Shown here: piece after piece, positions 41,585-62,820 of the stretch
How positions within the stretch are numbered: the first letter of the stretch is position 1
How the letters are laid out: each line of letters begins with the position of its first letter
NCBI GenBank assembly: GCA_021806605.1
Contig: JAJZQY010000002.1
Span: 26,900 to 90,899 of the forward strand
DNA from: Pseudomonadota bacterium
GTDB lineage: Bacteria > Pseudomonadota > Gammaproteobacteria > Burkholderiales > JABEVD01
DNA length: 64,000 bases
Reading direction: 5' to 3'
Position numbers and translations under genes: made by a program
Notes under the pieces: model-generated
The model's input: the letters and a program-made list of their open reading frames with translations, nothing else
The model's database searches: none
What the model was told of the DNA's origin: nothing

Positions 41585-42538
41585 TCATGCCAGCGCCAAG
41601 CGACTGGCTTCGCTTTGCTTGAGCGACGACGTGAACATTTCGCTTCCTGCGCAATGGTTCAGAAAATGCTTAAGGTTGTCAGAAAGATATTTCTGCTTGT
41701 GCAGGATGATGTGGAATTTCCGAGTCAGCTTGGGCAATTCCGTATCCAGGATGATCAATTGACCGGTTTCGAGATAATCCGCAACGGCCCATCGCGACAG
41801 GCAGCTTATTCCGAGCCCCTCGGAGGTTGCCCGCTTGATCGCTTCCGCGCCGCCGAATTCCATCCCGATGTTCAGATGGCTAAGATGCCTCAGCAATTCG
41901 TATTCCACCGTCTCGCGCGTGCCGGACCCGGATTCCCGCATCAGCCATTGCGCCTGCTGGAGCGTATCGAAATCAACCTTGCCCTTTCTGGCTATGGCAT
42001 GGGTCGGGGAGGCGACGATCAGCAGTTCATCCTGAATCCAGGGAATGACTTCAAGATTCGGCACATGGCAATGCCCTTCGATAAAGCCGGCATCGATCTC
42101 GTAATTCGCGACTGCTTCGGCGATTTTGGAACTGTTGGCAATGTCCACGCGCATGCTAGGCACCGCTTCGCATTCTCCGAATTGCTCCCTGCGGCAGCCG
42201 GCAAGCAGGGCGGGCAGAATGTAGTTGCCAATGGTCGTGCTCGCTCCCAAACGGAGTTGCGAAACCATCCCGGTCCGGGCAGTCGAAAATTGCTGTTCGA
42301 GATCGATTGCCCCTTCGATCAGGGCAAGCGCATTTGGCAGGAGCAGCCGCCCGTTGTCATTGAGCACGAGGCGCTTTCCGACTCGATCGAACAACTGGGT
42401 GTTGAGCAAGCTTTCTATGTCGTTGATGGCAGCGCTGGTTGCAGACTGTGAAAGGGGCAGACTCTTTCCCGCCTCGGTTGTGCTCGAGGTGCGCGCGACG
42501 GCGACGAAAATCTGCAACTGGCGTAACGTGATGCGCAT
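41585..42538 (-). CDS. LysR regulator, YeiE/FinR/CysL subfamily
   Basis: MRITLRQLQIF...SQSATS...QLFDRVGKRL, GASTTIGNY, RESGSGTR. Confidence 0.88.
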   Translation of the reverse strand: MRITLRQLQIFVAVARTSSTTEAGKSLPLSQSATSAAINDIESLLNTQLFDRVGKRLVLNDNGRLLLPNALALIEGAIDLEQQFSTARTGMVSQLRLGASTTIGNYILPALLAGCRREQFGECEAVPSMRVDIANSSKIAEAVANYEIDAGFIEGHCHVPNLEVIPWIQDELLIVASPTHAIARKGKVDFDTLQQAQWLMRESGSGTRETVEYELLRHLSHLNIGMEFGGAEAIKRATSEGLGISCLSRWAVADYLETGQLIILDTELPKLTRKFHIILHKQKYLSDNLKHFLNHCAGSEMFTSSLKQSEASRLALA

Positions 42539-42724: not shown

Positions 42725-43510
42725 ATGGATTTGACGCGTCGAGATATGTTGGGCATCGTGGCAAAAACTGGCCTCGCAGGCGTAGCTTTGGGAAGCGGCA
42801 TTGCCCAGGCAGCGGAAGCCCCTCTTTCTTCTTTGGAGCCGGATGGCGCGAAGACGCTGAAGGAATTGACGAAGGCTCTCGCAAAGGCGCCTCGCCGCCG
42901 GGACTTCAAGGAAGTGCCCATGATCCTGACCAAGGAAGATGAATGGGATCATGAAGCCCTGACCATCCTCATGAAGTACAAGGGCAAGGTCAAGCAGGTT
43001 TGGGACAATACGGACATCTCGGGCCCCTGGCTCAATCTCATGAGAAACTCAATGAATGCCCAGATCTGGTCATTCAAGCATCCCGACTTCCTATGCGTTT
43101 CGGCGACCCATGGCCCCGCTCATCTGGCGCTCTACGATCAATATCTCTGGGACAAGTACCAGCTTTCCAAGCTGACCGGAGACAAATTCAAGGAAAACAC
43201 CTTCCTGAAAGTGCCTGCGGCAGCGCACGCTGACCCGAAAAACTTCGAGGACGAGGAAGGCGTGTTTTCACCTGCAGATAATTCCATAGCCTCCCTACAG
43301 GCAAGGGGTGCGGTTTTTCTGGCCTGCCACAATGCGATTTTCGAGATTTCGCACATGCTGAACAAGAAGGGCGTCAACCCTGACAAACTCAGTGTGCCGC
43401 AAATGGTTGCCGAATTCACCAATCACCTGATTCCGGGCGTGATCCTCACCCCAGGGATCGTGGCCACCTTGCCGGAACTCGGCGTGCATGGCTTCCAGTA
43501 TGCGAAATAA
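42725..43510 (+). CDS. Tat-exported protein resembling Acidithiobacillus-type thiosulfate dehydrogenase Tsd (DsrE-like C-terminal motif)
   Basis: TRRDML Tat signal, PRRRDFKEVPMIL, CVSATHG, RGAVFLACHNAI; no CxxCH; RBS AAGGAG. Confidence 0.65.
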   Translation: MDLTRRDMLGIVAKTGLAGVALGSGIAQAAEAPLSSLEPDGAKTLKELTKALAKAPRRRDFKEVPMILTKEDEWDHEALTILMKYKGKVKQVWDNTDISGPWLNLMRNSMNAQIWSFKHPDFLCVSATHGPAHLALYDQYLWDKYQLSKLTGDKFKENTFLKVPAAAHADPKNFEDEEGVFSPADNSIASLQARGAVFLACHNAIFEISHMLNKKGVNPDKLSVPQMVAEFTNHLIPGVILTPGIVATLPELGVHGFQYAK

Positions 43511-43520
43511 AGGAAACCAC

Positions 43521-44468
43521 ATGAACAAAAAGCTGATTTCATCGCTCATGGGGCTGGGGTGCATTCTGGCGACGGCACAGGCCGTCGCGGATGTTTACCC
43601 GCCATGGAGCGAAGGAAGAAACAACCCGGTCACCGAAAGAGGCCTGGAATTCACCGTTCCGGAAGTCGACAATCTGCCGGATTTCCACGGCAACCCCATG
43701 GATGCCAAGCTGTCGGTTTTCGTCGGCGGAAACTATTATTTCGCCATGGCGCCGCTAGTCGCAGAATTCGAAAAGGAACATCCTGAGTACAAGGGCAAGA
43801 TTTACTACGAAACCATCCCTCCCGGCTTGCTTGCTACCCAGATTGAAAAAGGCGGCACCATCACGGTCGGAAACATGACCTGGACGGTGAAGGCGGATGT
43901 TTATGCCGCAGGCATGAAGCGCGTCAAGCAGATGGTGGACAAGGGTTATGTGAAGGCGGTCGAGCCTTATGCGACCAATGATCTCACCATCATGGTACCG
44001 AAAGGCAATCCCGGCCACATCACCTCGCTGAAGGATCTCGGCAAACCCGGCGTCAAGCTCGTCATGCCCAATCCCGCATTCGAAGGCATCGCACGGCAAA
44101 TCAAGGCAGCGCTGAAGAAGGCTGGTGGAGATGAACTGGTGAAAGCCGTTTATGAATCGAAAGTGAGGAACGGCGAAACTATCCTTACCCACATCCATCA
44201 CCGCCAGAGTCCGATGTTCCTGATGCAAGGAAAGGCAGTTGCCGGCGTGACATGGGGCTCGGAAGCCGTTTTCCAGGAAAGACATGCTGGAAACCCCATC
44301 TCGTTCGTGAAGATTGCGCCCGAGCATAACTCGACCGCAATCTATGCGGCAGGGGTGCTCAAGGATGCGCCCAATCCTGAAGCGGCAAAAGCCTGGGTGG
44401 AATTCCTGAAATCCTCCAAGGCACTGGCGATTTTCCAACAATACGGCTTCAAGCCTTATCGCCCGTAA
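43521..44468 (+). CDS. ModA/PBP2-like periplasmic oxyanion-binding protein
   Basis: Signal peptide, NDLTIMVPKGNP, MPNPAFEG, EAAKAWVEFLKS...QYGF; no permease or ATPase nearby. Confidence 0.8.
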   Translation: MNKKLISSLMGLGCILATAQAVADVYPPWSEGRNNPVTERGLEFTVPEVDNLPDFHGNPMDAKLSVFVGGNYYFAMAPLVAEFEKEHPEYKGKIYYETIPPGLLATQIEKGGTITVGNMTWTVKADVYAAGMKRVKQMVDKGYVKAVEPYATNDLTIMVPKGNPGHITSLKDLGKPGVKLVMPNPAFEGIARQIKAALKKAGGDELVKAVYESKVRNGETILTHIHHRQSPMFLMQGKAVAGVTWGSEAVFQERHAGNPISFVKIAPEHNSTAIYAAGVLKDAPNPEAAKAWVEFLKSSKALAIFQQYGFKPYRP

Positions 44469-44470
44469 AG

Positions 44471-44506
44471 ATGCTTCGGCCGCTCTCGACCAGAGCGGCC
44501 GAGCAT
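44471..44506 (+). repeat. Strong intercistronic stem-loop
   Basis: ATGC(T)TCGGCCGCTCT-CGACC-AGAGCGGCCGAGCAT. Confidence 0.7.
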
Positions 44507-44629
44507 GTTCATTTGAACACTATCTCTCGGGATCGAAGCCGGTATCCCGTCCAATTTGAAATGGCTCGAGCCAGAGCTCTTTTTGCATATTTTGAGGCCT
44601 ATTTGGTCGAAACAAGATGGAGTGAATAC

Positions 44630-46666
44630 ATGAAGTTGGGAATAGCCTCGCTGAAGTTGTTGGGTGCCGCATTGGCGACAATGGTTGCAAGCTCCGCGCT
44701 GGCTGCAGCGCCTTCATCCAATGATCTGGTCAAGCAGGGCGAATACCTGGCACATCTGGGCGACTGCGTCGCCTGCCATACCGCGCCTGGCGGCAAGCCG
44801 CTGGCTGGCGGCCTGGAAATGAAAACGCCGTTCGGCGTCATCCATTCCACCAATATCACACCCGACAAGGTAGATGGCATCGGCGCCTATACTTTCGAAG
44901 AATTCGACCGCGCGATGCGCCGCGGCGTTGCACGGGATGGACACAATCTTTATCCCGCCATGCCTTATCCTTCATTCGCCAAAATCGCCCAGAACGACAT
45001 GAGAGCCCTTTACGCCTACCTCATGCAAGGCGTCGAACCGGTTGCTCAGCCCAACAAGCCCAATGCCATGAAGTTTCCCTTCAACATTCGCCTGGGGCTC
45101 GCAGGCTGGAACATGGTGTTCCTGGATAATCAGCCCTTCCGTTACGATCCTTCGCACACCCCGCAGTGGAATCGCGGCGCATATATTGTAGAGGGACTGG
45201 GTCACTGCGGCTCCTGCCATACTCCGCGCGGCATCGGTTTCCAGGAAAAGGCCATGAGCGACTCGGGCAGCGACGGCAAGGAGTTCCTGGCAGGCGCAGC
45301 CGTCGAGCACTGGCGCGCCGTCAATCTGCGCAATATCTGGACCGGCCCTGAAATCGCCCAGTTTCTGAAGACCGGTGAAAATGGCCGCGGAACGGCCTAC
45401 GGCGGCATGGCCGAAGTGGTCCATTTCAGCTCGCAGCATTTCACCCAAGGCGACCTCGCCGCGATCGGCGAGTACATCCACGCGCTTTCGCCCAATTCGA
45501 ATGAGCGGCCGGATCGTGATGCCGTGTCGGTGGATGTCGCTCAAACCAACAAGGAGATCTATGCAACCCGCGGCGGCCTCGGTTACGTGCAGTTCTGCGC
45601 AACTTGCCATCAGATGGACGGCAAGGGTGCGACACGCTTTTTCCCGCCGCTCGCCGGCAATACTTCTATTCAGGCCAAGGACCCCGCATCCCTCATCCAC
45701 GTCATGCTGACGGGCTCCGCCTCGCCCCTGACCGCCTCCTCACCGCACGCCTTCGCGATGCCCTCCTATTCCGTGCTGAATGACCAGGAAGTCGCGGAAA
45801 TAGCGACTTTCGTCCGGACCCATTGGGGCAACAAGGGCAGTCCGGTGACTGCCGAACAGATTCACAAGATGAGGAAGGCGCTGGAAATGAAAAAGGCGGC
45901 TCCGCCTAAATTCAATCCGCCGCGCTATGCAGACATGCTGAAAAGCGCCAACGCAGCCGAGCTGATTTACGGCATGCGTCTGATGCGCGACACCAAGCGA
46001 CTGCTGCCGAACTATGTGGGCGATGGGCTGAACTGCGACAGCTGCCATATCAATGGCGGAACGATGGCGCTTGGCTCTCCTTATGTCGGTGTGGCGGCCC
46101 AGTTTCCCAGCTACAATCCCCGCGCCGGGCGCATCATCGACTTCAAGGACCGCGTCAACGGCTGCATGCTGCGCTCGATGGCAGGCAACCCGCTTGACAA
46201 GAATTCCAAGGAAATGAACGCTATGATCGCCTACATGGATTGGATGCGCAATGGCTATCAGATGAAGCAGAAGATTCCCGGGCGCGGGATCGGCAAGATC
46301 AGCAAAAGCATCGTGCCGAACGCGGCGAATGGCAAGGAAGTCTACAATCATTCCTGCGCCGTTTGCCACGGAAAACAGGGCGAAGGCATCAAGCGCGCCG
46401 ATGGCAGCTACCTGTTCCCGCCGCTGTGGGGCAACGACTCGTACAATATCGGCGCAGGGATTGCCAAGACCTACACGGCAGCCGCGTTCGCCAAGAATGT
46501 CATGCCGCTCTCGAATACCTTCTCCTTTCCGATTGGCCAGGGTGGCCTGACGGATCAGCAGGCGGTGGACGTCGGCGAATATTTCAGCCACATGCCAAGG
46601 CGCGATTTCCCGGCCAAGGTCCATGACTGGCCCAAAGGCGGCAAGCCGAGCGACTCGCGCTATTGA
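44630..46666 (+). CDS. Pentaheme cytochrome c: ADH/GADH-type triheme domain fused to a TsdA thiosulfate dehydrogenase domain
   Basis: CVACH, CGSCH, CATCH with STNITPD and YPAMPY; then CDSCH, RVNGCMLRSM, CAVCH, PPLWGNDSYNIGAG, NVMP. Confidence 0.85.
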   Translation: MKLGIASLKLLGAALATMVASSALAAAPSSNDLVKQGEYLAHLGDCVACHTAPGGKPLAGGLEMKTPFGVIHSTNITPDKVDGIGAYTFEEFDRAMRRGVARDGHNLYPAMPYPSFAKIAQNDMRALYAYLMQGVEPVAQPNKPNAMKFPFNIRLGLAGWNMVFLDNQPFRYDPSHTPQWNRGAYIVEGLGHCGSCHTPRGIGFQEKAMSDSGSDGKEFLAGAAVEHWRAVNLRNIWTGPEIAQFLKTGENGRGTAYGGMAEVVHFSSQHFTQGDLAAIGEYIHALSPNSNERPDRDAVSVDVAQTNKEIYATRGGLGYVQFCATCHQMDGKGATRFFPPLAGNTSIQAKDPASLIHVMLTGSASPLTASSPHAFAMPSYSVLNDQEVAEIATFVRTHWGNKGSPVTAEQIHKMRKALEMKKAAPPKFNPPRYADMLKSANAAELIYGMRLMRDTKRLLPNYVGDGLNCDSCHINGGTMALGSPYVGVAAQFPSYNPRAGRIIDFKDRVNGCMLRSMAGNPLDKNSKEMNAMIAYMDWMRNGYQMKQKIPGRGIGKISKSIVPNAANGKEVYNHSCAVCHGKQGEGIKRADGSYLFPPLWGNDSYNIGAGIAKTYTAAAFAKNVMPLSNTFSFPIGQGGLTDQQAVDVGEYFSHMPRRDFPAKVHDWPKGGKPSDSRY

Positions 46667-46701: not shown

Positions 46702-46738
46702 AGCGCTCCTCTCCGCTTCCGGGAGGGGCGTCTTTCTT
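46702..46738 (+). terminator. Probable terminator of the sulfur operon
   Basis: CGCTCCTCTCC...GGGAGGGGCG followed by TCTTTCTT. Confidence 0.55.
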
Positions 46739-55295: not shown

Positions 55296-56303
55296 TCAGG
55301 CCTTGATCAGCTTGTATTTCTTCATGGTCATTCTGACAATGGTGAATGCCGCTCCGAAAACAATCGCCGTGACGCCGATGTCGAAGAATGAGGTCATGGG
55401 CATATGGGCCGAATTGGAGGTGCCTGAAATCCACGTATAGCGCTCCAGCCAAGTCCCAATCATGATGCTTGCAGCAACAGCCAGGATCGAATAGATGCAG
55501 TGCCTGTTGAAGGGAAAAACCAGCATCAGGAACGGAAACACGAACTTCATGGCAAAGAAAGTCCAGAAGAGCCCTCCGTAATTTCCATACTGCATGTGGA
55601 AAATACGCCCTGTTTCGTCAGGCAGATTGCCGTACCAAATGATCAGATATTGGGCGAAGAAGGTGTAAATCCAGAGAATGGTAAATCCCAACATCATTTG
55701 CGCTAAGTAGTTGTATACGTAGTCGCCGATCGGCTTCGAAAGCGCACCCGAGTTGTTCAGGAAATAAATCAGCGTAACCGTGAATGCGAGGAACATGCCG
55801 AAATTACTGACGAAGAAATACATCGCATATATGGAACTTCCCCAGTATGGAGTCAGCGTCATCTCGTAATCCCAGGCGAACATCGTTCCAAAGAGCACGT
55901 AGGCAAATGGAATCAGCAGCGCCACATTACGAAATATGATCTTGCTGTCCGGATCCTTGTCCGCCTTCGCCTGATATTTTATAAAAATTGCGCCCAGAAT
56001 GCCGATGATGATAAAAGCGACAATTTCCCTAATCGCGAGGAAGGTAAGATTATTCCACAACGGCTTCGGTTCGATCGAGGTAACCCATGGAAAAGTAGTC
56101 TTGCCCCCCCAGAGCAGTATCAGCAACAGGATAAATGCAAGCGGATAGAGGGAGAAGAAGGATACGGTTATGAATCTCACATCATAACGCCACTTGGCAT
56201 TCACCAGGTGCAATAAGGCCGCAAGCGTAATACCGCCAAACGCCAAATAAAAAACAATCAGGAAATCCACGGTCAATACAGACCAGCTGGCAAAAGAAAC
56301 CAT
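55296..56303 (-). CDS. actF: Alternative complex III subunit ActF
   Basis: Polytopic membrane protein; WDYEMTLTPYWGSSIY, QYLIIWYGNLPDE, WLERY. Confidence 0.8.
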   Translation of the reverse strand: MVSFASWSVLTVDFLIVFYLAFGGITLAALLHLVNAKWRYDVRFITVSFFSLYPLAFILLLILLWGGKTTFPWVTSIEPKPLWNNLTFLAIREIVAFIIIGILGAIFIKYQAKADKDPDSKIIFRNVALLIPFAYVLFGTMFAWDYEMTLTPYWGSSIYAMYFFVSNFGMFLAFTVTLIYFLNNSGALSKPIGDYVYNYLAQMMLGFTILWIYTFFAQYLIIWYGNLPDETGRIFHMQYGNYGGLFWTFFAMKFVFPFLMLVFPFNRHCIYSILAVAASIMIGTWLERYTWISGTSNSAHMPMTSFFDIGVTAIVFGAAFTIVRMTMKKYKLIKA

Positions 56304-56318
56304 AATTACATTACCCCT

Positions 56319-56900
56319 TTATTGTTTACCGCCCTTGTCCGTATAGTCATAGTGGCCTTTGTCAGCACTGTAATGCGTCTTGAGCCAGTTCTGAGAGTAT
56401 TGCAGCAAACCATGACGGACGAAGTTGACGATATCCCAGCGTTCGTTCGGATACAGATCATTGGCGTAGGAAGGCATCACCGCCCCTCCGAACGTCATGT
56501 AGCCGAAAATGTGTCCTTCGGTCACCTCATGCTGAATGCGATCGGATGTCAGGTCGAAAGGCTGCAATGTCAACTTCATGCCGACGGGGCCGTCACCCTT
56601 GCCTGAATAATTGTGGCAAGGAGTACAAATGACCTCGAACAGTTTCATCCCGTTATGGATCGATTCTGGCGTTGCCGCAACCGGGTTCTTGGTTGCGTCG
56701 GCCTCGTCCATGTCAACAATCCGCGACGAAGTCTTGGTGCTCGGAATGGGTACGGAATGTTCCGGGAAAGGCCGAACACCCATCGGGCCATGCTGCGGCT
56801 TGATGCTAATCTGATCCATCATGTCGGTAGACCACGGCCAAGCCATGGCAACAGATGGAATAAGTGTTGCAATCACCGCGAACCATCGCAACTTTACCAT
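56319..56900 (-). CDS. actE: Alternative complex III monoheme subunit ActE
   Basis: DMMDQ, CTPCH, GDG, MPSY, RWDIVNFVR. Confidence 0.82.
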   Translation of the reverse strand: MVKLRWFAVIATLIPSVAMAWPWSTDMMDQISIKPQHGPMGVRPFPEHSVPIPSTKTSSRIVDMDEADATKNPVAATPESIHNGMKLFEVICTPCHNYSGKGDGPVGMKLTLQPFDLTSDRIQHEVTEGHIFGYMTFGGAVMPSYANDLYPNERWDIVNFVRHGLLQYSQNWLKTHYSADKGHYDYTDKGGKQ

Positions 56901-57425
56901 TTAGTTATCCCCTCCCATGATTTCCAATGGGTTGTGTCTTGTAAACAGATCCTTGATGGCCGGCATTATAGCGTCCTCTGCTTTGATGAGAATGCCGATT
57001 TGATCTTCGGAAACCCGGGCGTTGTACAGCTTGTTTCTTTTCATCGGCAATTTCGCACTGATGAAAAAACCGAGCACCGTCATGTACACCCCCCCAAGAA
57101 TGAAAAATTCATAGGTCAGAACAAAATTTGGCGGGAGCGGGATTACCGGCTTACCTCCTTTTGGCTGCAACAGGAAGGTTGCTTGCGACGAAGCCACAAA
57201 CAAGAAACCCAGAAGCGGCACGAACAATGCGCCAAAGAAGGTGAAGATCCTGACATACACAGGACGCTTTCCGAGCAACTCCTCAATTTCAGGGTGCTCG
57301 ATCGGCGATTTTAGCGTCACGTCATCCAATTTGAATCCCTCAAAATTTGAGGATTTAAGGTCCCGAATTGCCTCGGAGGCCTGATCGAAATCGGAAAACA
57401 ATGCCAGCATATGCGATTTACTCAT
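56901..57425 (-). CDS. actD: Alternative complex III subunit ActD (DUF3341)
   Basis: SPIEH, two TM helices, GGKP...YEFFIL; operon position. Confidence 0.82.
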   Translation of the reverse strand: MSKSHMLALFSDFDQASEAIRDLKSSNFEGFKLDDVTLKSPIEHPEIEELLGKRPVYVRIFTFFGALFVPLLGFLFVASSQATFLLQPKGGKPVIPLPPNFVLTYEFFILGGVYMTVLGFFISAKLPMKRNKLYNARVSEDQIGILIKAEDAIMPAIKDLFTRHNPLEIMGGDN

Positions 57426-58879
57426 GATGCAAGCCCTCCCTCAACTGCCAAATCTGGATTAATCGCGGGATCCCGAGCAGTTGCTACGTTGGTACTTTTA
57501 AAGAATCTACGCTCATGAAGCATTTCCTTTACCTCATACATTGAAACTGAAGGAAATATCTTGCAATACAACATGAAAAGCATGTTGAACCAGCCAAAGC
57601 TGCCGGCAACAATTCCCCATTGGACAAAGCTTGGCCATTGATCGTCGTCCCAGGTCCAGGGATAAATTCCGTGTGCCAAGGTCGGGGAAATAATCATCCA
57701 GCGTTCCAGCCACATCCCGAAATTGATGAAGATAGACATGAAAAGCATTACAGGGATACTCGCCCTTACTCTTTTGAAGGTGAGTGCGAAAGGAAGCACC
57801 GACCCAAGGAAGTTCATCATCCACCACTCGGGGGCAAACGGACCTGTAGCGCGATATATCAAGGCCTGCTTGGCGTACATGTCATTGCCATACCATGTCG
57901 TGGCATATTCGATGAGATTCAGGTAAGTCCATACCATTCCCGCTGCAAAAGTCAATTTTGCGAGCTTTTCGAGAATCGGCATGGTCATGTATTCCTCGAA
58001 TCGGAACGTATATCGAAGGACGATGAAGAGTGTGATAATCACGGCCAGCCCTGAATATATGGCCCCTGCGACGAAGTAGGGAGGGAAGGACGTGATGTGA
58101 TAACCGGGTTGCTGTGATGCAGCAAAATCGGTCGAAACGATGGAATGCACAGAAACAGCAAGGGGCATCAGAAAGCAGGCCAGAGTCAAATAAGTGACGC
58201 GGAAGTTGGCCCATTGCCGATCGGTTCCCATCCAGCCAAGCGACATGAAGGTATATAACTTCTTGCGGATTCCAATGGCATTGTCACGGCAAATAGCCAG
58301 ATCCGGAATCATCCCGATGTAAAGGAACAGGAGCGATGAAGTGAGGTAGGTTCCGATCGCGGTTGCGTCCCAGACCAGAGGAGACTGAAAGTTAGGCCAT
58401 GTCCATCTTTCATTCGGATAGGCCACCACGTAGTAGAACTGCCATATCCTGCCCAAGTGAACCAAGACGAAGAGCGCAGCAGTCAGCAGTGTGAATGTGG
58501 TCATCGCTTCGGAATATCGGTAAATCGGCTTGCGCCAGTCTGCATGCATGATATGCAGAAGGGCTGAAAGCAGCGTTCCGGAGTGCCCCATTCCAATCCA
58601 CCAAATGAATGTCGCAATATAAAGCCCCCACACTTGCGGGTTATTCAGGTTGGCGACGCCCAGGCCAGTTTGATATTGGTAGACCTCGCAAGAGACGCCA
58701 ACCAAGAACAAGGCAAAAGATGCAATGAAAATCACCCAGAATATCGGCCTTGGACGCTCCAAACTGCGCAGTATGTCCTTATTGATTTTTGCCCATGCGA
58801 TATCAGCATTTATATCAAGCGGTTTCGGGACAAATCGCTTCTCTACGGCGACTTCTGTTTCTTCGTATGTATTGACCAT
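57422..58879 (-). CDS. actC: Alternative complex III quinol-binding subunit ActC (NrfD family)
   Basis: WGLYIATFIWWIGMGHSGTLLSA, HLGR, PNFQSPLVWD, SVHSIVS, GMWLERW. Confidence 0.88.
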   Translation of the reverse strand: MVNTYEETEVAVEKRFVPKPLDINADIAWAKINKDILRSLERPRPIFWVIFIASFALFLVGVSCEVYQYQTGLGVANLNNPQVWGLYIATFIWWIGMGHSGTLLSALLHIMHADWRKPIYRYSEAMTTFTLLTAALFVLVHLGRIWQFYYVVAYPNERWTWPNFQSPLVWDATAIGTYLTSSLLFLYIGMIPDLAICRDNAIGIRKKLYTFMSLGWMGTDRQWANFRVTYLTLACFLMPLAVSVHSIVSTDFAASQQPGYHITSFPPYFVAGAIYSGLAVIITLFIVLRYTFRFEEYMTMPILEKLAKLTFAAGMVWTYLNLIEYATTWYGNDMYAKQALIYRATGPFAPEWWMMNFLGSVLPFALTFKRVRASIPVMLFMSIFINFGMWLERWMIISPTLAHGIYPWTWDDDQWPSFVQWGIVAGSFGWFNMLFMLYCKIFPSVSMYEVKEMLHERRFFKSTNVATARDPAINPDLAVEGGLAS

Positions 58880-58946
58880 TACAAAATTCCTTGAAGTAAA
58901 AACATTACCTATAAGAGGAACACAAGCAGTTAACGCGAGATCAATC

Positions 58947-59795
58947 CTATGCTTCCATATCTCTTACTCGCTCCAAGTACATCACTGACGGGAACGGTCT
59001 CAAATCTTCCAATATCCTATATCCACGAACCGAGTTGTCCTTTTCCTGCATGTCTTTGTAAAGATCGACCTGCTGATTCTTCCACATCATTGCAACCTTC
59101 GACTTCGGGTCAACTATATTGCCAAAGGTGATCGCGCTTGTCGGGCAAGCCTGGACGCAGGCAGGCACGACTTCTCCGTCCCTGACGAGACGATATTCCG
59201 TTCTGGCGCGGCTCTTGGCTTCATTCAGTCGCTGAACGCAGAACGTGCACTTTTCCATGATTCCCTTGGTGCGGACTGTCACATCGGGGTTGAGCTGATC
59301 CGGAAGGGGTGCCGGCCAAGCGGTAGAAGGGTAGTTCCAGAAATTGAAGTATCTGACCTTGTAAGGGCAGTTTACCGAGCAGTATCGGGAACCGACACAC
59401 CGGTGATAATTCTGGGAATTCAAGCCGTCGTTGGTATGGCTGGTTGCACCGACAGGACAAACAGTTTCGCAAGGGGCCTCCTCGCATTGCTGGCACATCA
59501 TGGGCAGGAAAGATGCGCCTTGCTCAGGAAACTCGCCCATGTTCTCATCCCAGTAGCGCTCAATCCTGATCCAGTGCATCACATGTCCCTGATTGAAACG
59601 CTTCTTGCCAACCACCGGAAGATTGTTTTCTGCATAGCAGGCTGTCGTGCATGCGTTGCAGCCCGTACAGATGTCAAGGTCCAGCGCCATTGCCCACTTG
59701 TACTCGCTGTACTGCCTATTGAGATCGTATTGACCCTGATAGGGACGCTTTTGCCTGTAGAAAGACCAGTTGTTCAAAAGATTCGTAATCGACAC
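58947..59795 (-). CDS. Alternative complex III Fe-S subunit ActB2
   Basis: CTGCNACTTAC, CQQCEEAPC..VCP, CVGSRYCSVNCPY, EKCTFC..PACVQACP. Confidence 0.88.
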   Translation of the reverse strand: MSITNLLNNWSFYRQKRPYQGQYDLNRQYSEYKWAMALDLDICTGCNACTTACYAENNLPVVGKKRFNQGHVMHWIRIERYWDENMGEFPEQGASFLPMMCQQCEEAPCETVCPVGATSHTNDGLNSQNYHRCVGSRYCSVNCPYKVRYFNFWNYPSTAWPAPLPDQLNPDVTVRTKGIMEKCTFCVQRLNEAKSRARTEYRLVRDGEVVPACVQACPTSAITFGNIVDPKSKVAMMWKNQQVDLYKDMQEKDNSVRGYRILEDLRPFPSVMYLERVRDMEA

Positions 59796-59797
59796 TT

Positions 59798-62014
59798 TTA
59801 AATCTCCTTGGAAAGCTGAGCGACGTCAGCAGGTAACGTCACAACCAGTTTGCGCCCCATTTGCGTACTGACGGGACCTTCATCCTTGACAACAATTTCA
59901 GATTGACCGGTTCTCTTTACAGATACGCGAGTGCCAAACATGGCAAGCTCTCCCGTATTCTTTTCAAATACCGGATTCAGTATCTTAAACGGATTGACGC
60001 CAACGCCTTTCGCAAACCTTCCCAGCGATTCATGTCCTTGTCCAAGCGGAATCGAAATTGCATCGGGATGGATGCCTGGGAAAAGGTAGGCCTTCACCTT
60101 GATTGTGCCGTTCTGAGAGGAAACTTCCAGATAGTCTCCTTCGTGAATTCCCATGCTGGCGGCAGTTTTTGGGTGAATTTCAGCCCACGAATCCCAGACT
60201 ACGGTGGTAAGCGGATCAGGAGATTCCTGCAACCAACCACAGTTTGCGTGTCTGCCGTCTCTGAAATAATGACGTTCGGATGGAATCAGATAGAACGGAA
60301 ATTTTGGATCAGGTGAATTTACCGTCGTCGGAAGGTCGAGCATCTCTGTTGAAAAGTTCTCCGCGATCTGCTGTTGCGGCGCATCGACATGAATCACGCC
60401 ATGACTCAGGGTGTCGTACCAGAAATGCTCGTCAGTATCCGTATATTTGACTGCGGGCTTGATGTTGGTGACCGCCGTTTTCAGATAGGAAAAGAAATTG
60501 GGCCATGCCTTATATTCGTCCGCACGGCGCTGCTTTACGAGATCAAGCATGATATCCCCCATGGAACGGGTATCCGAATAAAGCTTGTCCATGAGCGGCT
60601 GCTGCATGGTGATCTCGACACCCTCGGGCTGATACCAGGCGACATGCGAGCCGAAATCCTCGACTGCAGTATAAATGGGCAACACGAGATCGCACTCTTC
60701 TGCAGTCTCGTCGACCGCATTGACGAAAGCCACCTTGAAAGGCACTTTTCTGAGGTTATCCCTGAATCCCATAAAACTGGGCGTTGTGAATACTGGATTT
60801 GCGCCATAGATAAAGACAGCCTTGTACGTTCCAGCGCCCATTCCATCATTCATTGCCTTCAAGGATGCGAAGCTTCCTGTTGCAGGCGCGAGTTGCGGGA
60901 AAGGTGATTGCGCTTGACCATCAACAGTTTTCCCCACATTGCCGAGTATTCTATTGAGGATCTGGATCGCTGCCGCATTCTGAACGCCATGAACATGTCC
61001 TTCGACGGATGCGCCAGAAATGACGAGACTCGGCGACTTCTCCCAAAGCAACCCCGCCAAATGGCCAATCAAATCCGAGCGCACGCTCGTAATGCTGCTG
61101 ACTGTGTCGAGATCGTACTTGCCAACGAGGTTGACGATATCCGCAGGTACGGTTTTGGAAAAATCGTCGTGCTTGAGAAGCTGATTAGCCACACCCAGCG
61201 CAAGCACGCCTTCCGTCCCTGGGATGATCGGGATCCAGCGATCGGCATTTGCGCCGGTCATGGTCATTTTGGGTTCGATCTGGATAAGCGTTCCGCGCGG
61301 TGCCTTCCTGAATTTCGCATATTCCTTCGCAAAATGAACCGGGGATGCGCCGGTTCCGAGAAAATCACTTCCGAACGAAAGTATAAGCTTCGCCTTGTCG
61401 AAATGTAGCCTCGGCATGTCAACGCCGTAAATTTGCTTGTTTGCGGCAAAACTGACTGCTGGGGAAAGTGCTTCGTAAACAAAATGGTTTTTGGAACCCA
61501 GGCTATCCAGGTAGTTCTGTACCAGCACCTTGAGATGGCCGCTCATGGCGCCAGTCATGAATGCAAATTCATTGCCGTTTATGCCGCTTTTGGGCCCTGT
61601 CTTCTCTTCGAGCAATGCCATCGCTTTATCCCAACTGACAGGCTGGAGGCTATCTCCTACCCGCATCATCGGCTGAGTCAAGCGATCGGGGTTATACTGA
61701 ACCTGGACTGCAGCCTGTCCCAGCCCGCAAATTTTTCCACCGCTGATCTTCGACTCTGGGTTGCCTTCCATCTTGAGCACACGCCCTTCGCGGACGCGCC
61801 CCATGACACCGCATGCAGAGCCACATTGAGTGCAGGTTGATGCATAGAAAACACTGAGACCTGGCACCACAAAATCTTCGGGGTGAACGTTCGGCATAAT
61901 GATCTCGTCACCTGATCGAATGTCTGTGTTTCCGCATCCCGTGAGCGCAAGGGTGCTTCCGCCCAGCCCAAGCACCTTCAGAAAATCCCTGCGATTAATG
62001 CCACTATCACTCAT
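59798..62014 (-). CDS. Alternative complex III subunit ActB1 (molybdopterin-oxidoreductase fold, Tat lipoprotein)
   Basis: NRRDFLK...LTGC, CTQCGSACG, EGNP..CGLGQ, YNPDR, DGRHANCGWLQESPDP. Confidence 0.85.
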   Translation of the reverse strand: MSDSGINRRDFLKVLGLGGSTLALTGCGNTDIRSGDEIIMPNVHPEDFVVPGLSVFYASTCTQCGSACGVMGRVREGRVLKMEGNPESKISGGKICGLGQAAVQVQYNPDRLTQPMMRVGDSLQPVSWDKAMALLEEKTGPKSGINGNEFAFMTGAMSGHLKVLVQNYLDSLGSKNHFVYEALSPAVSFAANKQIYGVDMPRLHFDKAKLILSFGSDFLGTGASPVHFAKEYAKFRKAPRGTLIQIEPKMTMTGANADRWIPIIPGTEGVLALGVANQLLKHDDFSKTVPADIVNLVGKYDLDTVSSITSVRSDLIGHLAGLLWEKSPSLVISGASVEGHVHGVQNAAAIQILNRILGNVGKTVDGQAQSPFPQLAPATGSFASLKAMNDGMGAGTYKAVFIYGANPVFTTPSFMGFRDNLRKVPFKVAFVNAVDETAEECDLVLPIYTAVEDFGSHVAWYQPEGVEITMQQPLMDKLYSDTRSMGDIMLDLVKQRRADEYKAWPNFFSYLKTAVTNIKPAVKYTDTDEHFWYDTLSHGVIHVDAPQQQIAENFSTEMLDLPTTVNSPDPKFPFYLIPSERHYFRDGRHANCGWLQESPDPLTTVVWDSWAEIHPKTAASMGIHEGDYLEVSSQNGTIKVKAYLFPGIHPDAISIPLGQGHESLGRFAKGVGVNPFKILNPVFEKNTGELAMFGTRVSVKRTGQSEIVVKDEGPVSTQMGRKLVVTLPADVAQLSKEI

Positions 62015-62077
62015 AACTAAATCTTCCCATAGCTAATTTTCGGGTGGAAATACGTCCGCGATTGATACCGCAAACCC

Positions 62078-62686
62078 TTATTTGTGACACTGCCAGCATT
62101 CTCCCGGGCCGTGGCTTGTTTTCATGTTCGTATCGCTTTCCTTGTGGTCCTTCTGGTGACAGCTGATGCACCAACCCATAGACAGCGCCTTGACGCGCCT
62201 GTCGACGGTCATGTTGGCAACGTCGCCATGACAATACCCGCACACCTCGCGCACCGGCCTGTTTTGCCTGAAATAGAAGCGCTGTATATGGCGTTCGTGG
62301 TTGAATCTGACGTAATCCGGAAGGTCATTGACTTTTTTCCAAGGAATGGGCTGCTTCTTGTCCCAATATTCGAACAGCTTCTTGATTCTGGGCTTGTTCC
62401 TGACCGATTCGATGTTTTGATGGCACCCGATGCATTTGTCGATCCTTGGAATCACCGACACATATCCCCGCCTTGCACCGGTGTGACAGTACATGCAGTT
62501 GATTCCCATGTCGCGCGCATGCCTGTAATGGGGAAACTCGATGGGTTGCTTGACTACCGGCCCCAACGCATTATAGCCATCGGGAGTCTGCGACCCGATG
62601 GGGCCTCCCTGCACGAAAGGTTCCGCACCAGCAGCAGTTCCAAAAAGGAAAGCAAAACACAGCGTCGCCAGCAAACGATGGATCAT
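62078..62686 (-). CDS. actA: Alternative complex III pentaheme cytochrome ActA
   Basis: QPIEFPH, CMYCH, CIGCH, FNHERH, CGYCH, MGWCISCH, CWQCH. Confidence 0.88.
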   Translation of the reverse strand: MIHRLLATLCFAFLFGTAAGAEPFVQGGPIGSQTPDGYNALGPVVKQPIEFPHYRHARDMGINCMYCHTGARRGYVSVIPRIDKCIGCHQNIESVRNKPRIKKLFEYWDKKQPIPWKKVNDLPDYVRFNHERHIQRFYFRQNRPVREVCGYCHGDVANMTVDRRVKALSMGWCISCHQKDHKESDTNMKTSHGPGECWQCHK

Positions 62687-62820
62687 GTTTCCCGTCCTAA
62701 GAGTATTAAAGCAAGTCATAAAATGATATCCATTGAATTTGACCATTCGAAATTCAGCCTACACCGATCACCCCACCCAGCAAGGCATGCAGCCTTACGC
62801 CTCACCACCGATAGCAAAAC

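Follow-up and report, generated by a model that had tools for sequence, protein, structure and literature searches.

Which electron carrier does thiosulfate chemistry reach when the cytochrome TsdA is built into one chain with a three-haem subunit of the alcohol dehydrogenase (ADH) type? This question is raised by a gene in a stretch of 64,000 nucleotides (the window) from contig JAJZQY010000002.1 of a Pseudomonadota bacterium of the order Burkholderiales (assembly GCA_021806605.1). The reading frame at 44630-46666 of the forward (+) strand encodes 678 residues with no internal stop, with CxxCH motifs at residues 46, 193, 323, 469 and 576. A GGAG at 44619-44622 favours the start at 44630 over a longer reading from 44471. 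The product is predicted to be an exported single-chain fusion with five haems, and with a probability of roughly 60 per cent we read it as a reversible periplasmic thiosulfate/tetrathionate:quinone oxidoreductase associated with the membrane and likely oxidative in the source organism; it would then be a counterpart of DoxDA that uses haems only. The gene and its modules are as follows.

44630..46666, + strand: pentahaem fusion gene, 678 aa (trihaem + TsdA), from the translated reading frame and profile and structure matches
44630..44707, + strand: likely Sec-type signal peptide, residues 1-26, ending ALA-A and without a lipobox; cleavage site placed by eye
44708..45889, + strand: ADH/GDH/FDH-type trihaem module, residues 27-420, CxxCH at 46, 193 and 323; sequence match, TM 0.80 to 8gy2_B, Z 28.2
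45890..46663, + strand: TsdA dihaem domain, residues 421-678, CxxCH at 469 and 576, with R498, R508, C512 (46163-46165), S516, G610, K622, V624 and M625 (46502-46504); alignment, TM 0.86 to 4wq7

Both halves match proteins of solved structure. Residues 11-416 match the cytochrome subunit of Gluconobacter oxydans ADH (8gy2_B, E 1.3e-103) and the trihaem subunits of GDH (8hdd_B, E 8.5e-95), FDH (7w2j_C, 9.9e-78) and ALDH (8gy3_A, 4.1e-62), and residues 439-660 match TsdA of Allochromatium vinosum (AvTsdA; 4wq7, E 6.2e-44). The PF21342 profile gives 48.7 bits on the fusion (cut-off 27). An AlphaFold2 model built from 107 sequences (pLDDT 82.6, pTM 0.83) has TM 0.80 to 8gy2_B and 0.86 to 4wq7, and superposes on the ADH-type trihaem with Z 28.2 (root mean square deviation, rmsd, 3.2; 399 residues aligned) and on TsdA with Z 20.2 (rmsd 2.4; 223 aligned). 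A preliminary description of this DNA had proposed just such a five-haem fusion, in which three CxxCH motifs with signatures of alcohol and gluconate dehydrogenase subunits precede a TsdA domain. The strings in question (STNITPD, YPAMPY, WNRGAY, NGCMLRSM, PPLWGNDSYNIGAG and KNVMP) are all present, and the proposal is borne out by the five motifs, by the match to 8gy2_B and by an alignment that places C512 at the position of the active-site cysteine of AvTsdA. Compared with ADH subunit II, the N-terminal half has three CxxCH motifs with Met distal ligands in the matching fold; M111, M260 and M377, invariant in 121 of 121 aligned sequences, are the probable distal ligands of haems 1-3.

An artefact of assembly or gene calling, by which two adjacent genes are read as one, might produce the same picture, and a split pair does exist in a Paenochrobactrum genome (L026:5857-8123), where a trihaem gene is directly followed by tsdA. 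The probability of such an artefact is nevertheless negligible: the frame holds no stop, the 120 full-length homologues, some of them on complete isolate replicons, refute an assembly chimaera, and M377 and C469 lie 92 residues apart in 116 of 121 sequences. All 120 homologues among the matches listed cover 95-100% of the query at identities of 56-96%, and five CxxCH motifs occur in 120 of the 121 aligned sequences. The fusion is widespread but patchy. Of 72,556 plasmid records, 11 carry it with a cover of at least 80% (Burkholderia, Cupriavidus pMOL30, Ideonella, Thioclava, Rhizobium); it is also found on Pseudomonas chromosomes, in at least 9 of 392 genomes of the order outside the source genus and in at least 2 of 400 genomes of a phylum sample, the order and phylum counts being lower bounds with two candidates scored per genome. 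The 7931 protein matches include trihaem-only proteins and were not counted as fusions; genome G283 counts only towards the tally below cut-off and the genome totals of the order searches, and supports no claim.

The TsdA active site is complete in all 121 sequences. The key residues of AvTsdA are reported to be Arg109, Arg119, Cys123, Ser127, Gly221 and Arg224 (PMC4423706). The first four correspond to R498, R508, C512 and S516, each found in 121 of 121 sequences, whereas Gly221 corresponds to G610 (120 of 121) and Arg224 to K613 (Arg in 82, Lys in 38 of 121). By alignment, and as a matter of position only, C512 stands at the haem-1 ligand of AvTsdA in the whole set. The distal Met that the preliminary description saw in NVMP is indeed the TsdA haem-2 ligand (M625, 121 of 121), but the residue before it is Val; at that site, which helps to set the direction of the reaction, A. 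vinosum TsdA has Lys and Campylobacter jejuni TsdA (CjTsdA) has Asn (PMC5146829). Across the family this residue is N in 108, V in 9, D in 3 and A in 1 of 121 sequences, with Val in the present gene and eight close relatives. An identity as SoxA was rejected (TIGR04484, 56.7 bits against a cut-off of 110; TsdA-specific Ser516 present). Thiosulfate/tetrathionate chemistry is very probable for the fusion.

The neighbourhoods of the gene outside the genus bear on the same point. In 14 of 21 loci (two duplicates were dropped and G646 was left out) the neighbours are sulfur-linked and of five different kinds: in 5 the fusion has a TtrS-like kinase next to it, accompanied by a response regulator wherever this was checked; a fusion-sbp-DsrE order, where sbp encodes a binding protein, occurs in 4, three of them with a YeiE-like lysR; ArsR-rhodanese lies beside it in 3, all Pseudomonas; the thiosulfate dehydrogenase gene tsd in 1; and in 1 (G327) the fusion lies beside a separate tsdB-tsdA-HiPIP set, sulfur transporters and rhodanese, which suggests a non-redundant role for the fusion. 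No recognised sulfur neighbour was found in the other 7. The locus on pMOL30 of Cupriavidus metallidurans CH34 (L092:6749-9001, RMET_RS30050), a well-studied plasmid of metal resistance on which the fusion has an integrase and the czc cluster as neighbours, has none. Such loci, pMOL30 included, together with a Val624 that differs from both the Lys of AvTsdA and the Asn of CjTsdA, are what one would expect if the TsdA-like domain acted on another substrate or only relayed electrons, like the C. jejuni paralogue CccC, its sulfur neighbours being incidental. CccC, however, has Met in place of the Cys, whereas Cys512, Arg498, Arg508 and the TsdA-specific Ser516 are invariant in the fusion, and this explanation, set also against the 14 sulfur-linked loci, seems to us very improbable.

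The connection with quinone is suggested by the operon. Nine genomes of the genus were compared, including the genome carrying the window (G000), in which three genes precede the fusion.

41585..42538, - strand: divergent LysR regulator of the YeiE type; NF040889 372.6 bits, below its cut-off of 480; NF008095 above cut-off; 8sbh YeiE, E 1.9e-50
42725..43510, + strand: tsd, a twin-arginine protein of 261 aa; NCBIfam NF052225 thiosulfate dehydrogenase, 393.9 bits (cut-off 300)
43521..44468, + strand: sbp, a ModA-like sulfate/molybdate-type binding protein (SBP_bac_11) with no ABC permease beside it; Pfam and neighbourhood

From model name, size and context, not from alignment, tsd would be of the Acidithiobacillus AFE_0042 type. 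In Acidithiobacillus ferrooxidans, tsd, sbp and doxDA are described in one cluster, and the TSD of Acidithiobacillus is described there as reducing neither ubiquinone nor cytochrome c (PMC6335251). Within the genus tsd is present in 8 genomes, the fusion in 6 (in one of them truncated where the contig stops) and DoxDA in 2; the fusion and DoxDA occur together in none of the 9. The order is lysR divergent from tsd-sbp-X, in which X is the fusion in G000, G003, G004 and G006 and DoxDA in G002 and G005 (355-357 aa, DoxD and DoxA both over Pfam cut-offs). In G001 the tsd-sbp and fusion parts end two contigs, which a near-identical metagenome contig (L069) shows joined, and in G008 tsd-sbp stands alone with the fusion 25 kb away. 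No DoxD or DoxA Pfam domain matches the fusion, and a DoxDA query finds nothing in G000, where the lone DoxD match is a 137-aa DoxX protein. As it occupies the slot of DoxDA in sister genomes, the fusion is likely a second, unrelated design that wires thiosulfate chemistry to the quinone pool.

Outside the genus, tsd scored over its cut-off in 6 more of 401 genomes. The slot after tsd-sbp there holds a dihaem cytochrome and tsdA (tsdB-tsdA) in G399, G151 and G228, tsdA in G393 and nothing recognised in G300 and G394. Ten metagenome contigs carry DoxDA in 4 cases (in the order tsd-sbp-doxDA), the fusion in 2 and half a DoxDA without sbp in 1, and end too early in 3. On a plasmid of Burkholderia sp. 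IDO3 (the one record examined of the 25 plasmid tsd records) tsd lies directly before the fusion; this tsd groups with a tsdA-linked tsd (98/96), apart from the source genus. Three enzymes that are unrelated or wired differently thus have the slot in common, which speaks strongly for the reaction but only weakly for the acceptor.

The three-haem half gives a second line of evidence. Its closest solved relatives are subunits of membrane-bound dehydrogenases, and ubiquinone is reported as the acceptor of ADH and GADH complexes, reduced by the three-haem subunit (PMC9171043). In the deposited chain 9x0q_B, a shortened form of the G. oxydans ADH subunit, three hydrophobic stretches are, by sequence comparison, replaced or removed. 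These stretches, probably the membrane-binding parts, correspond to residues 66-68, 149-165 and 201-204 of the fusion, all conserved and hydrophobic in the family.

44825..44836, + strand: hydrophobic hairpin tip T66-P-F-G69, putatively membrane-facing; T in 118, P in 121, F in 110 and G in 121 of 121; altered in 9x0q_B
45074..45124, + strand: aromatic helix F149-L165, putatively membrane-binding; W/F149, F151, R154, L157, W160 and F164 conserved; Gly-replaced in 9x0q_B
45230..45241, + strand: hydrophobic loop G201-I-G-F204 after haem 2, putatively membrane-facing; conserved; deleted in 9x0q_B

No catalytic partner gene of the pyrroloquinoline quinone (PQQ), FAD or Mo kind adjoins the fusion gene. 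The GADH/FDH small subunit (PF13618) was absent from all 5 genomes searched, the GMC and Mo families lying outside this search. The PF13360 match in G000 is a single lipoprotein-like reading frame within a housekeeping cluster; TetH, probed through PF13360 only, was not found.

A two-chain model, for which the single chain was split into its halves and these were paired by their own alignment, places TsdA on the haem-3 domain with a score of 0.84 (best control 0.00). The mark for this score was reached by 116 of 157 solved pairs and by 2 of 215 mismatched pairs; the runs agree in at least 87% of contacts, and partner pLDDT is 85 or more. On the trihaem side the predicted contacts of TsdA are confined to the haem-3 domain (311-390), and they include residues 578-579 of the haem-5 motif and the loop 628-635. 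In 8hdd the piece that binds the catalytic subunit is likewise the haem-3 domain.

The terminal oxidases of the genus form a further indication. Full cytochrome c oxidase subunit I was found in none of its six fusion-bearing genomes; G003 and G008 (99% complete) have CyoB over cut-off plus bd, and bd is present in 5 of 5 genus genomes tested. Proteins of about 170 aa (G000:C63:7893-8393 and relatives) match only the last third of the COX1 profile, lie beside small cytochromes and have no NCBIfam match. A monohaem cytochrome of 153 aa (G000:C82:43970-44428) bears a weak likeness to the TsdA/SoxA haem domain, with similar matches in other genus genomes. SoxB was not found in G000 (82% complete). 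Matches of CcmF or CcmC size are absent from the G000 assembly and present in 5 of 5 relatives; the haem maturation genes of G000 are therefore probably just unassembled. None of 5 genomes searched for System II haem maturation has ResB.

The history of the family bears on the role of the added haems. In a tree of TsdA domains, the 28 five-haem fusions group with 6 three-haem relatives in a single clade (SH-aLRT 99). A topology that keeps the 28 five-haem domains strictly by themselves is rejected (p-AU 0.006), since the three-haem derivatives branch from among them. This shape suggests a single fusion event followed by repeated loss of haems 1-2. Proteins with three motifs number 14 in 120 matches; 6 have their own signal peptide and the other 8 are fragment-like. 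The six (P0187, P0207, P0211, P0215, P0282 and P0294) consist of a signal peptide, the haem-3 domain and TsdA, and two of them are named from Syntrophobacteraceae and Anaeromyxobacter. The Paenochrobactrum split pair falls outside the fusion clade and is possibly the operon ancestral to the fusion.

Much of this can also be read otherwise. The trihaem module could be a mere wire or buffer towards a soluble cytochrome c, a HiPIP or alternative complex III, as in TsdBA, with its quinone site vestigial, and a number of observations weigh against quinone coupling and in several cases speak for such a wire. SoxA, a donor at the level of cytochrome c, scores over its cut-off in G001, G003, G004 and G008 (4 of 6 fusion-bearing genus genomes); its presence in oxidase-less genomes means that an exit route for cytochrome c exists without a cytochrome c oxidase. 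Perhaps electrons of that level are drained by a cluster in the window itself (55296-62758, - strand) that resembles alternative complex III, with a five-CxxCH cytochrome, probable molybdopterin-type and Fe-S subunits, an NrfD protein identified by profile scan (PF03916), a monohaem cytochrome and a probable second membrane subunit. Fusion-bearing genomes of five other families carry further full-length haem-copper subunits of cbb3/aa3 size in 9 of 9 cases, not classified. Within the genus the exchange of DoxDA and the fusion counts as a single event: G002 and G005 belong to the same clade, have the DoxDA locus at a different chromosomal site and are both only 88-89% complete. Since tsdB-tsdA occupies the third slot in other families, the slot marks the reaction and not the electron acceptor. 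Neither a transmembrane helix (the best 19-residue hydropathy is 0.88) nor a lipobox is present in the protein, a lipobox-like pattern occurring in 1 of 121 aligned fusion sequences, and the C-terminal extension of about 40 residues found in ADH, FDH and GDH subunits is gone, with TsdA in its place. Forms with haem 3 and TsdA and without haems 1-2 arose several times; the loss of these two haems in six natural relatives indicates that the quinone-facing half is dispensable in some lineages. The docking result may be an echo of TsdBA (5lo9), on which the model overlays loosely (Z 21.9, rmsd 6.9, 403 aligned). Finally, oxidation to ubiquinone is uphill near neutral pH.

On the other side, a mere wire fits poorly with the hydrophobic segments and both extra haems being kept in 120 of 121 homologues among the matches listed, with a genome (G327) that carries both tsdBA and the fusion, and with the presence of quinol oxidases only in G003 and G008. 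We regard the wire as unlikely and quinone coupling as the likelier arrangement. Of the preliminary description, which had read the protein as a quinone-linked enzyme, the domain identity and the TsdA active site are fully supported. The quinone link, which remains a likelihood, gains support from the DoxDA swap, the putative membrane-facing segments, the predicted haem-3 docking and the quinol-only oxidases; against it stand TsdBA in the shared slot and SoxA in oxidase-less genomes.

If the fusion is a quinone oxidoreductase, its cycle may be outlined as follows. By homology to TsdA, thiosulfate would bind at R498, R508 and S516 (PMC4423706), an S-thiosulfonate would form on Cys512 at haem 4, and a second thiosulfate would release tetrathionate. 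Two electrons would leave via the His/Met625 haem 5, predicted to be packed against the haem-3 domain, and would pass from haem 3 to haem 2 and haem 1 and on to ubiquinone, which would be reduced at a hydrophobic face made up of residues 66-69, 149-165 and 201-204. The bd and bo3 quinol oxidases would reoxidise the quinone pool.

In which direction would such an enzyme work? Ubiquinone has a potential of +100 mV at pH 7, which changes by 59 mV per pH unit. That of tetrathionate/thiosulfate is given as +198 mV (PMC5146829). Computed for three concentration sets, electron transfer from thiosulfate to ubiquinone is uphill at pH 6-8 and downhill at pH 2 in all of them, with a crossover at pH 3-6; as a rule of thumb it becomes downhill below about pH 4-6, according to the concentrations. 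The label 'mine drainage metagenome' on sequencing runs of the same study and on some close homologues indicates that the genus probably lives in acid. By this pH inference thiosulfate oxidation is likely, at about 2:1, in the rDsr-bearing source genus, and quinol:tetrathionate reduction is more likely in neutrophiles with TtrS-like neighbours.

A narrower version of the quinone reading, which takes the smaller share of it, is that in the source organism the enzyme mainly serves as a molybdenum-free quinol:tetrathionate reductase in low-oxygen respiration. Reduction of tetrathionate by quinol is downhill at pH 6-8 in the three concentration sets, and the family motif K-x-N-M (K in 119, N in 108 of 121) corresponds to K252/N254/M255 of the reduction-biased C. 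jejuni TsdA (PMC5146829). The TtrS-like kinases at 5 of the 21 loci outside the genus would fit as well, but TtrS, the best model for the four that were scanned, gives only 318-339 bits against a cut-off of 750 (the fifth was recognised by tblastn and Pfam), and the TtrS-like sensor domain was not found in G000. Moreover, TtrRS of Vibrio is reported to control both tetrathionate reduction and the thiosulfate-oxidising tsdBA (PMC11293645); a TtrS-like kinase is therefore compatible with either direction. An oxidative role is described for the slot partners tsd and DoxDA (PMC6335251), and dsrA is present in 5 of 5 genus genomes tested. We consider a mainly reductive role doubtful, somewhat more so than the wire. 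As to regulation, the Vibrio ttrR box (GTGG-N4-CCAC) was absent upstream of all 16 fusion genes checked. A palindrome of the AGGG-N3-5-CCT type lies about 100-140 bases upstream of the fusion gene in L094, L095 and L096; it is a possible regulator box, found at 3 of 5 loci with TtrS-like kinases and 1 of 14 without, the pattern having been chosen post hoc.

The fusion shares features with four known systems. With TsdA (A. vinosum 4wq7/4v2k; C. jejuni) it has in common the fold (TM 0.86), two CxxCH motifs, the Cys ligand position, the equivalents of Arg109, Arg119, Ser127 and Gly221, and the distal Met; it differs in three further haems on an N-terminal module of 390 residues, in Val at the Lys208/Asn254 site and in Lys at the non-essential Arg224 site. 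The tetrahaem TsdBA fusion of Marichromatium purpuratum (5lo9) likewise has an electron-transfer cytochrome N-terminal to TsdA, but there the partner, a dihaem cytochrome, delivers electrons in the direction of cytochrome c oxidase (PMC9774590), whereas that of the present protein is an ADH-type trihaem with no sequence match to TsdB, giving five haems; 5lo9 matches residues 423-656 only, which places the protein outside TsdBA. The trihaem subunits of ADH, ALDH, FDH and GDH (8gy2_B, 8gy3_A, 7w2j_C/8jej_C, 8hdd_B) share sequence (E 1e-103 to 1e-62), fold (Z 26-28), three His/Met sites and the hydrophobic segments, but in the fusion TsdA replaces a separate PQQ, FAD or Mo subunit and the C-terminal extension is absent. 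DoxDA (TQO) has the same slot after tsd-sbp and presumably the same net reaction, yet the fusion is not homologous to it: with no DoxD or DoxA domain, five c-haems and no transmembrane helix, it would act like a TQO and is not a member of TQO.

Some further features of the locus may be mentioned. No haem motif occurs in the tsd product, whose single invariant Cys (FLACHN) is shared by 20 of 20 homologues. Its model is poor (pLDDT 58.3) and all its Foldseek matches, among them a DsrE/DsrF-like entry, are weaker than E 0.001. True DsrE proteins replace tsd beside fusion-sbp in two other families, and homology of tsd to these proteins of 161-169 aa was not shown (hhalign probability 9.3%, 29 columns). 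The tsd product may be a sulfur carrier and not a redox enzyme. No sigma-70-like promoter was found at the fusion locus. Two hairpins flank the gene, of which the first could serve in transcript stabilisation or attenuation.

44475..44503, + strand: hairpin of 12 pairs within the 161 bases that separate sbp from the fusion gene, from the sequence
46703..46731, + strand: terminator-like hairpin 3' of the fusion gene, consensus match only

The fusion is thus a real, conserved and apparently uncharacterised variant of TsdA. No description of a five-haem or trihaem-TsdA fusion was found in a literature search, a passing mention being possible, for example in the supplements of key TsdA papers; the relevant passages of PMC9774590, PMC9237845, PMC5937911, PMC8348568 and bioRxiv 10.1101/708438 treat TsdA, TsdB and TsdBA only, or hold nothing relevant. 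The acceptor named for TsdA is the cytochrome TsdB, and the coupling of thiosulfate to quinone is ascribed to DoxDA, by a mechanism of which little is known (PMC9774590). Homologues of the fusion are annotated as 'c-type cytochrome', 'alcohol dehydrogenase cytochrome c subunit' or 'thiosulfate dehydrogenase', so that surveys of sulfur metabolism in mine water that score doxDA or stand-alone tsdA may misfile it.

Tentatively, and with less confidence than in quinone coupling itself, we suggest that the fusion could represent a third kind of thiosulfate/tetrathionate respiratory enzyme: encoded by one gene, haem-only, reversible and interchangeable with DoxDA, oxidative in acid and serving molybdenum-free tetrathionate respiration in neutrophiles. 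It would belong to a modular lysR-tsd-sbp-X operon in which TSD is an accessory sulfur handler and X (DoxDA, TsdBA or the fusion) performs the redox step. This division of roles, if true, would explain the failure of purified TSD to reduce ubiquinone or cytochrome c, and with a third slot that is interchangeable, the question of which acceptor takes electrons from Acidithiobacillus TSD can be put to a direct test. A single-chain, all-haem enzyme of this kind would be a tractable model for the coupling of the well-understood TsdA chemistry to quinone, and the fusion may give soil and freshwater heterotrophs a hidden route of tetrathionate respiration.

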